From Eledone cirrhosa (lineage: Eukaryota), in assembly GCA_964016885.1 (NCBI GenBank), contig OZ024749.1, positions 34,720,001 through 34,784,000 on the forward strand: a stretch of DNA of 64,000 nt, in the 5' to 3' direction. Positions within the stretch are counted from its first letter, which is position 1. Each line of letters starts with the position of its first letter. Shown in pieces: positions 9,330 through 13,802 of this stretch. A program made the position numbers and the translations under genes. Under the pieces are notes generated by a model. It was given only the letters and a program-made list of their open reading frames with translations. It was not told where the DNA came from and searched no databases.

Positions 9330-9946
9330 GGGGGTAAGAAGCTCTCAGGAGAGCTGGACAGCAGAAGGTCTTCAGAGAAGAAATTCCCCCTCAAGTAAGT
9401 GTTTCGGCCTTTAACTTCTTACACTGTAAAGCCGCCAGGCTGCATTCAGGTCATGACTCCTCGGTGCCCTTCTGCTGGCATTTAACCATTCAGAAATCAG
9501 AGACTTGCTGTGTATTTAAACCATATGGAGATTTTGTTGCAACAACTTTCCATTGCTTCTGCTTTCAAACTTATACTTAAATGCTTTCTTGAATTGGAAA
9601 ATAACATTGGTAGTCCGGTAGTAGTGAAATACGGTCACCAGCAAGTGACTTCAAGTTACATCCTTTAATGTGCGTTAAAATAAAAACACAATGCCGCTCG
9701 AGTGGTATGGGAGTCGTTTTTGTTTCTCCTCGACCAGATCCTGCTGTAACTCCTTTCCGCTGCCTCTGATATTGCCTTAAAGGATTTGGTCCTTGTCTTC
9801 TCAGAGACTGGGAGTTGTTTCATGAGATTGTAGGCAAATTTGCCCACAAATCCTCTGGCTCGAACTTCTATTATGAGAACTTTGATTCAGAAGTTGGCTT
9901 CCCTCAAGCTGTTGGCCAAACTGACGAATTTTTCACTCTTGAATAC

Positions 9947-10072: not shown

Positions 10073-10404
10073 GGAGGCACATGGCTTAGTGGTTAGAGCA
10101 TTGGCCTTGCAATCGAAAGGTTGTGAGTTCAATTCTCAGACCGGGTGATGTGTTGTTTCCTTGAGCAAGACACTTTATTTCACATTGCTCCAGCTGTAGA
10201 AATGAGATGATAGGGACTGGGGTCCCTATCATTCCACTGCTAAGTGGTCTGGTCGTGGAGGTGCCATGGCAAAAAAGCACCCAGCACTCACTGTAAATGA
10301 GGTTGGTGTTAGGAAGGGCATCCAGCTGTAGAAATCAAGCCAGAATCAGTTCCCGTCCCACCTTTGCAAGCAGGGAAAAGTGGACGTAAAATAAATAAAA
10401 TAAA
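10073..10404 (+). mobile_element. Full-length tRNA-derived CORE-type SINE with RTE-derived tail
   Basis: A box TGGCTTAGTGG; B box GAGTTCAATTC; CORE-like TCCTTGAGCAAGACACTTTATTTCAC; tail CCCGTCCCACC(C/T)TTGCAAGCAGGGAAAAG shared with the RTE LINE 3' end. Confidence 0.85.
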
Positions 10405-12185: not shown

Positions 12186-12646
12186 TACCACAACGAGATC
12201 TTTGGCGCTACGCAGTAATACAGAAGACCCGCCTTGTCTATGTACAAAGCAAAACCTACAGTCAGTAGGCACCTCTTAACCAAATATACACTCCAATCTA
12301 CTACCCCGACCCTATCCTCCCACTCCCACCAACAGCACGAGAAAATAAGATCGAGTTCTGTAGGTGTCACGACAAAAAAAAACACACACAGTCCACGCTG
12401 TAATGTGGCCGTGTGGGTAACACGGTAAAAAGTTGCCAGTTCCACACTGTAAATGTGGTTGGTGTTAGGAAGGGCATCCAGCCGTAGAAAACCTGCCAGA
12501 TGGTCCTATATGAGCGATACACGATCACCCGACCAGCCTTGCCTCCAGTGGGGCAACTCCCATCTAACCCATTAGACGGGAGTTGTCCCACTTGAGGCAA
12601 GGCTGGTCGGGTGATCGTTAAACGAAGATGATGATGATGATGATGA
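12186..12646 (+). mobile_element. RTE family B 3' end with a fold-back replacing part of the tail
   Basis: Matches the reverse complement of 19102-19550; inverted arms 12521-12567 and 12572-12618. Confidence 0.8.
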
Positions 12647-13239: not shown

Positions 13240-13802
13240 TTTTCCTTAGAATATATATATAATAGAGTATTGAAGTTTGCTTGAAGCATTGTGGAATAAT
13301 AAGGTAAATTTCTTTAAGTCGTTTGGAAGCCTCGACAATGCAAATGGGTAAATCTCCGGGTAACAAGATCTGGTGGTGGAGAGAGAGATGTAAGTGGGTG
13401 TACGTTGAGATACGTGGCGTGTATAAGACGTGTAGAGGAATGAAGGAAAGAGCGTAAAGGATAAAAATAAAAATAACAACACGAGAGAGAGTTACCTTGG
13501 GGGAAAGGTTGTCTGCTTCCGACAGACAACCTTTCCCCCACTCCGGAAAAAAACCCCAGTTGATGGATGTGAATCCGAAATATATAGGGACAATTAAATC
13601 TCTCCCAAGGTAACTCTCTCTCGTGTTGTTATTTTTATTTTTATCCTTTACGCTCTTTCCTTCATTCCTCTACACGTCTTATACACGCCACGCATCTCAA
13701 CGTACACCCACTTACATCTCTCTCTCCACCACCGGATCTTGTTACCCGGAGATTTACCCATTTGCATTGTCGAGGCTTCCAAACGACTTAAAGAAATTTA
13801 CC
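13240..13802. mobile_element. Penelope-like inverted terminal structure with 199-bp arms
   Basis: Arms 13303-13501 and 13604-13802 (2 mismatches seen); spacer holds an 18-bp hairpin and a degenerate minimal hammerhead at 13554-13589. Confidence 0.6.

Follow-up and report, generated by a model that had tools for sequence, protein, structure and literature searches.

The element copy in the window

The window, a 64,000-nt stretch of Eledone cirrhosa contig OZ024749.1, carries a decayed and 5'-truncated copy of an RLE-type non-LTR retrotransposon, about 610 nt long, which belongs to family 1 and is 77% identical to locus L251 over 649 nt (Table 1). The last part of its ORF remnant aligns (62% identity over 60 aa) with the C-terminus of an intact reverse transcriptase protein, P0004, which is 1033 aa long and contains RVT_1 and zf-RVT domains; its endonuclease motif was identified by eye, and its best solved relatives are R2 proteins. 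This protein displays the features of an RLE-type non-LTR element, namely a single ORF, a reverse transcriptase with a C-terminal zinc-binding/endonuclease region, and R2 as nearest relative. No relatives of P0004 were found in viral contigs. Family 1 is tentatively labeled Hero (HERO).

A hammerhead-like motif lies approximately 240 nt 3' of the stop of the broken ORF remnant. The first-pass annotation had read its three strands as AGTG-TA^AGAAG (9425-9415), AAGGCC-GAAA-CACT (9411-9398), and CTTCT-CTGAAGA-CCTT (9380-9365), enclosed by a 10-bp helix (9477-9468 with 9368-9359), and our analysis confirms these letters and coordinates, the helix, and the distance from the stop. The window copy has an A at position 10.1 in place of the conserved G and has lost most of the helix that joins stems I and II. 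It folds no better than shuffles when taken as a single sequence (z -0.45), a result that is uninformative because the copy is both pseudoknotted and decayed, and Rfam returned no hammerhead match in it at E values up to 10. The 3.0-Gb genome holds approximately 1200 candidate copies of the motif region, the best of which are 82-89% identical. Among long copies of family 1, 35 of 63 retain all core letters and 15 also satisfy a fixed-spacing test for G10.1, a degree of loss that is as expected for an old family.

Table 1. Positions of the element copy, its ORF remnant, and the parts of the motif in the window
Feature	Position	Strand	Remarks
Decayed, 5'-truncated copy of RLE-type non-LTR retrotransposon (family 1)	9333..9945	-	flanked by TA microsatellites
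ORF remnant, C-terminal endonuclease region	9665..9945	-	one in-frame stop at 9889-9887
Clamp helix Pa, 5' strand	9468..9477	-	pairs with 9368-9359, 10 bp
Hairpin Pb, palindromic apex 9457-9450	9442..9467	-	ends directly 5' of position 10.1
True stem II strand 10.1-10.5	9437..9441	-	10.1 is A here, conserved G elsewhere
Interaction helix (stem I-stem II), 5' strand	9430..9436	-	degraded in window copy
Block S: stem III 5' strand, U16.1 (9421), A17 (9420), stem I 5' strand	9415..9426	-	
Block G: stem II strand 11.5-11.1 (9410-9406), GAAA (9405-9402), stem III 3' strand	9397..9410	-	
Interaction helix, 3' strand	9386..9392	-	
Stem I 3' strand and CUGAAGA core (block C minus its stem II half)	9369..9380	-	
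Clamp helix Pa, 3' strand	9359..9368	-	directly 3' of A9
Terminal hairpin and 3' end of insertion	9333..9358	-	joined to 5' UTR in tandem copies

Other repeats lie nearby in the window. The tRNA-like head of a SINE (10082-10139; Rfam 28.1 bits, slightly below the cut-off) adjoins the element, a near-perfect, GC-rich inverted repeat of 88 nt ends a SINE-like repeat (12526-12613, where Rfam miRNA matches are weak and far under the gathering score), and a MITE-like fold-back element of approximately 470 bp with long inverted arms was recognized by eye at 13320-13790.

Occurrence of the motif in related elements

A second family, found by a protein search of the same genome and 37-40% identical to the query protein, bears the same motif built from different stems. 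An alignment of 34 relatives, used as query, recovered 79 metagenome loci; we examined the 61 loci in which the match extends as far as the end of the ORF (18 were left out), and 51 of these have a tail of at least 150 nt. A strict descriptor of the motif, with its blocks in the order S-G-C, matched within 400 nt in 35 of the 51 tails, which belong to related elements of other organisms, as compared with 0/51 tails on the reverse strand and, over 100 dinucleotide shuffles, 0.02 matches per set of 51; the motif is thus not equally frequent in shuffled sequence. Fifteen tails had no strict match within 700 nt. Five of them fit if a single imperfect helix or core letter is allowed, another gives a partial fit and another a poor one, and the remaining eight do not fit, with three of these eight ending inside the motif as judged by eye. 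The motif is spread across the protein tree (a quick, unrooted version), and the counts across these relatives are not independent events since the relatives share ancestry. Rfam reported no hammerhead match in 16 related loci at E values up to 0.05. The motif is real and conserved beyond chance, and lies, as the first-pass annotation proposed, in the tail of an RLE-type non-LTR element, where it is common to relatives.

The spacing between stop codon and motif varies. In L306 (~2690) and L362 (~3680), the deepest-branching relatives, the motif is found approximately 600 nt past the stop, compared to 60-250 nt elsewhere. In the clade nearest family 1, tRNA-like stretches were noted by eye between the stop codon and the motif (L290, L292, L293, L308, L316, L335, L344, and L354), for which Rfam has no match at an E value of 0.05; these stretches possibly represent an internal Pol III promoter located 5' of the ribozyme.

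Fold and covariation

The strand order deduced from the sequences is Pa5'-Pb-II(10.x)-interaction-III-UH^-I-II(11.x)-GAAA-III-interaction-I-CUGANGA-Pa3'. The first-pass annotation had recognized that the hammerhead core is in a non-circular order, that it may be pseudoknotted, and that a short link, 3 nt in its reading, joins the stem I and stem II strands; our analysis bears all of this out, with a link of 3-4 nt. It had, however, assigned stem II to CCUU/AAGG, a complementarity that is present in the window copy and not conserved as a helix. With anchors set independently of stem II, the strand 5' of GAAA in 36 distinct sequences pairs with the strand 3' of CUGANGA by at least 4 bp in 2/36 (cross-pair background 3.3%), versus 34/36 for an upstream strand, which reaches at least 5 bp in 31/36. 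The cross-pair backgrounds for this upstream partner, 42% (at least 4 bp) and 21% (at least 5 bp), are high because many of the sequences share letters. The upstream strand lies 19-20 nt 5' of U16.1 in 29/36 (ties broken toward 19).

With a family-2 copy substituted for the window copy in the set of 36, G10.1 stands opposite C or U11.1 in 35/36, and all 36 form stem II pairs 2-4, each of which occurs as three or four pair types. In this set, the interaction helix has at least 6 bp in 29/36 (17.7% in cross-pairs). Hairpin Pb sits directly before 10.1 in 32/36 sequences, with an apex palindrome of at least 6 nt in 25/32 versus 12.4% in shuffles. Among 34 relatives, 24 form a clamp helix Pa of at least 8 bp, against a cross-pair background of 6.9%. 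The apex palindromes occur in several different sequences; those of the window copy (9457-9450) and its relatives vary in sequence and stay self-complementary, like a dimer-initiation loop.

In a MAFFT alignment of 30 sequences (mean identity 43%), GAAA and CUGA-GA are invariant, and U16.1 and C11.1 are nearly so. Position 17 is never G among the descriptor matches, although the descriptor excludes G there by construction. Four helices are paired in 91% of cells, and 18 of their 20 pairs have changed on both sides; 0/500 shuffles attain either the paired fraction or the covariation score, and slid structures reach 37-50%. When CCUU/AAGG is taken as stem II, 52.5% is paired, 232/500 shuffles score as high, and no covariation is seen, and we rejected it. 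All five pairs of the interaction helix show changes on both sides, indicating a tertiary contact between stems I and II. The family thus has the hammerhead core letters (CUGANGA, GAAA, and UH), stems I, II, and III with covariation, and the G10.1-C11.1 and A15.1-U16.1 pairs, of which the window copy lacks G10.1.

The first-pass annotation had also suggested that the 10-bp helix competes with stem II, possibly as a switch. This reading fails because the clamp helix shows covariation and lies clear of the true stem II; the helix is instead a conserved part of the fold. An obligate dimer is unnecessary, as the core can be built without one, even though the palindromic loop hints at possible dimer contacts.

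Relation to known ribozymes and elements

The circular order of hammerhead types I, II, and III is not found here; the order is S-G-C, as in the type-SGC hammerhead (HRIMA-1 and variants; Eckert et al. 2023, PMC10085705). According to the available text of that paper, type-SGC cleaves in vitro, its stems I and II are connected by 3 nt and by an extra interaction helix, and it comes from metatranscriptomes, with no example found in the genome of a known organism; the text treats CUGANGA and the adjacent stem II strand as inseparable, and in it the string "retrotranspos" occurs in the reference list only. As far as that text describes type-SGC, our motif shares the block order, the short (approximately 3-nt) I-II link, the helix that connects stems I and II at their far ends, and the full core consensus. 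It differs in that the stem II strand, which in type-SGC directly follows CUGANGA in an intact block C, here lies 5' of block S, that two helices are inserted at A9/G10.1, and that it resides in animal retrotransposon DNA rather than in anonymous metatranscriptomes. CUGANGA runs into Pa, the partner strand of Pa runs into Pb, and Pb runs into G10.1; the arrangement can therefore be described as a type-SGC core opened at A9/G10.1. The aligned sequences thus indicate that block C is split at this linkage, with the core re-closed by the two added helices.

The motif is very probably a working ribozyme. We infer catalytic competence only indirectly, because no precedent was found for helices inserted at A9/G10.1. 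The available text of PMC4209133 notes that Penelope hammerheads often have one extra nucleotide at the A9/G10.1 linkage, PMC3088659, as far as available, locates hammerhead core insertions near C3, A6, and A13, and the accessible parts of PMC2632901 and PMC10162972 contain nothing on insertions at A9/G10.1. The first-pass annotation had wondered whether the motif was undescribed: the block order S-G-C is published and shown to cleave (PMC10085705, from its available text), and the novelty that stands is the split block C, with the strand wiring that follows, for which the literature searched holds no example and the supplementary alignments of PMC10085705 may hold one. Likewise, the literature searched reports no hammerhead for HERO or any other RLE element, and Repbase, Repbase Reports, Dfam, or ZWD may hold one. 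In their accessible portions, PMC4640811, PMC13580325, and PMC7650587 name HERO and make no mention of a HERO ribozyme, and those of PMC13725137 and bioRxiv 10.64898/2026.07.22.740005 contain nothing on one.

Two other groups provide partial parallels, drawn here from the available parts of the cited sources. Like R2 and other RLE elements and the HERO clade (PMC4640811), the element has a single ORF with a reverse transcriptase and a C-terminal zinc-binding/endonuclease region. HDV-like ribozymes set or trim the 5' end for R2 and other RLE non-LTR elements (cited in PMC13725137), and our motif is likewise predicted to set the RNA 5' end from a longer transcript; unlike in R2, the ribozyme is a hammerhead in the 3' tail, which would act via a tandem junction. 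With Penelope-like elements and non-LTR retrozymes (PMC4209133, PMC11167929, bioRxiv 10.64898/2026.07.22.740005), the element shares a hammerhead in the terminal repeat of a partial tandem, an internal start of reverse transcription (predicted here), a proposed circular template, and palindromic elements. The hammerheads of those groups are of type I, often minimal and dimeric, and accompany a GIY-YIG endonuclease, whereas here the reverse transcriptase is R2-like and the pseudoknotted ribozyme is already complete in a single molecule. In PMC11167929, priming is shown to be internal for Penelope, insertion in vitro did not require hammerhead cleavage, and the hammerhead site was not the end point of any reads; a circular template has been proposed for Penelope-like elements (PMC4209133).

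Insertion 5' ends at the predicted cut

The predicted cut falls between 9420 and 9419, and insertion 5' ends peak at 9419 (+1). The first-pass annotation had suggested that this cut defines the 3' end of the element RNA; this is not so for insertions, because family-1 insertions run approximately 90 nt further, and the cut is instead a frequent 5' end. Indeed, many family-1 insertions consist of the segment from cut site to tail end only. We measured 5' ends in 90 tail-anchored copies, taken from the first 100 listed of 239 exact matches of the tail-end pattern (omitting four neighbors of one cluster and the last six). Twenty-three began at +15 or beyond, 23 at +3 to +14, 14 at -2 to +2 (eight of them exactly at +1), eight at -3 to -60, and 22 further upstream. 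Expressed as a rate per base at risk, ends occur at 0.5-0.65% from +15 to +60, 3.2% from +3 to +14, 8.9% from -2 to +2, and 0.5-0.6% upstream, an approximately 15-fold rise at the predicted scissile bond. For the -2 to +2 window, which was set in advance, approximately 0.9 ends were expected (Poisson p 1.6e-12), and in a scan of 4-nt windows the best ones all include +1. A few 5'-end assignments are noisy, owing to internal deletions and one triplicated locus. A GAAAC-anchored sample of 91 sites, drawn from 482 matches and in part shared with the first sample, placed 18/91 ends at -2 to +2. All counts exclude a 60-nt DNA search, which was dominated by a tail-derived satellite.

Individual insertions illustrate the same end point. 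L042 starts at +1 within a target duplication of more than 20 nt, and L165 and L192 are head-to-head fold-back pairs joining +1 to +15, consistent with cDNA that ended at +1 and then folded back. Many copies start exactly at the predicted cut, and the element RNA is therefore likely to be cut in living cells; the 5'-end peak is likely a fossil of such cleavage. Family 2 shows little pile-up, as judged by eye: 2/28 copies begin near the site and 26/28 read through it. A search of sequencing runs with the family-2 tail found no RNA dataset among the matches listed.

Satellite-like derivatives of the tail are also present. Tandem arrays of up to seven units of the approximately 90-nt cut-to-tail-end fragment, with short TA spacers, occur in L022 (1684-1880), L053 (864-1590), and L039; they resemble retrozyme-like satellites, although their units could not self-cut because each is without block S. 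A 42-bp satellite derived from the CUGAAGA-to-tail-end segment occurs in L013, L023, and L065-L090 (the C1 cluster near 15.9-16.3 Mb) and was apparently seeded by a short internal repeat.

Partial tandems

Tails are also found fused directly to the 5' UTR of the next unit, as in L245, where a 611-nt tail is joined to the 5' UTR of a full unit. In family 1, the tail precedes the UTR start in all six of the copies that keep it (among 10 matches), and also in L150 and L404. In family 2, four of the six copies that keep the UTR start have the tail directly before it with no spacer; of the other two, the first begins a few bases into the UTR and the second is rearranged. Two of the four family-2 tandems have the form tail-unit-tail, with spacings of 3599 and 3132 nt. 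The first base after the tail is identical to the first UTR base in 102/135 insertions. Six metagenome contigs repeat tail sequence at the contig start, which may be assembly overlap. The element thus has the partial tandem with repeated terminal region of Penelope-like elements, and does not have their telomerase-like reverse transcriptase and GIY-YIG endonuclease. The upstream tails of all four family-2 tandems cross the cut site, which fits an uncut tandem RNA as well as a circle.

Proposed mechanism and alternatives

Building on the covarying fold, the 5'-end peak, and the tail-UTR fusions, we propose a clamp-and-read-through model, to which we give a probability of roughly two in three: the tail hammerhead would cut unit-length RNA from tandem transcripts, the RNA ends would be held or rejoined, and reverse transcription would start inside. 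In this model, the two ribozymes of a partial tandem would release an RNA that starts at the cut (+1) and consists of approximately 90 nt of tail, the 5' UTR, and the ORF, with its 3' end at GUA. The ends could then re-pair through Pa, II, III, and the interaction helix (approximately 25 bp), giving a nicked or ligated circle, and the reverse transcriptase would prime at the tail/5' UTR boundary, probably within the terminal hairpin region (Table 1). On nicked RNA it would run off at +1 to produce the mini-insertions and fold-back pairs; on ligated or uncut RNA it would read through, possibly for more than one unit, and recreate the partial tandem.

Another role for an active ribozyme is conceivable, in which it merely trims the 5' end of a transcript made from the upstream tail, or severs the ORF from the priming signal to limit the element, with no circle and with long insertions arising from uncut tandem RNA. 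This accounts for the +1 peak and the tandem junctions without ligation, and the available text of PMC13725137 connects 5' ends generated by ribozymes with the initiation of translation in retrotransposons and in RNA viruses. We consider it unlikely, as the conserved pairing of approximately 25 bp that bridges both products and the efficient read-through in family 2 are both left unexplained, although each of these points is only suggestive. Less likely still is a non-catalytic fold, serving as a docking structure for the reverse transcriptase or as a dimerization signal, with the 5'-end peak arising where a tight structure stalls the enzyme. Such a fold would suit the broad shoulder from +3 to +14, where more ends lie than at -2 to +2, and the weak pile-up in family 2, and the palindromic loops suggest a structural role. 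However, all unpaired catalytic letters of the hammerhead are invariant while the stems are free to vary, the peak and the sharp drop coincide with a bond that analogy had predicted in advance, and the helices that conflict with type-SGC suit a hammerhead once block C may split.

The peak would be uninformative on cleavage if the short copies were offspring of one truncated master, a SINE-like offshoot that started at +1 by chance. Short copies are slightly more alike than long ones (80% versus 74%), and the tandem arrays of the fragment described above exist; nevertheless, none of 95 columns tested was diagnostic (smallest p 0.04), the two alleles of a T/C dimorphism are each present in short as well as long copies, flanks differ, and the 5' end of the master itself would still have to be placed at that bond by something. 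We regard this explanation as highly improbable. Extending the clamp-and-read-through model, we tentatively suggest, at somewhat less than even odds, a fuller reading in which the motif is a seventh natural hammerhead wiring, with an A9/G10.1 split and a five-helix junction, ancestral to an animal LINE-type clade whose transposition may proceed via self-cut, self-clamped circular RNA, palindrome-paired dimers, and rolling reverse transcription. Rolling reverse transcription of circular RNA is unreported for any R2-group element in the literature searched.

Implications

The split block C breaks a stated assumption of the six-permutation hammerhead scheme, and descriptor and Rfam searches therefore miss this class, which is probably abundant in animal genomes. 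Hammerheads that are not circularly permuted move from anonymous metatranscriptomes into a defined, clonable element. In addition, the genome appears to preserve a fossil record of in vivo cleavage at single-base precision, of a kind missing for Penelope hammerheads, and the long-proposed circular-template model of partial-tandem retrotransposons becomes directly testable. The enzyme family concerned is R2-related and under development for gene insertion. If the hammerhead cuts, these elements could copy themselves from head-to-tail or circular RNA.
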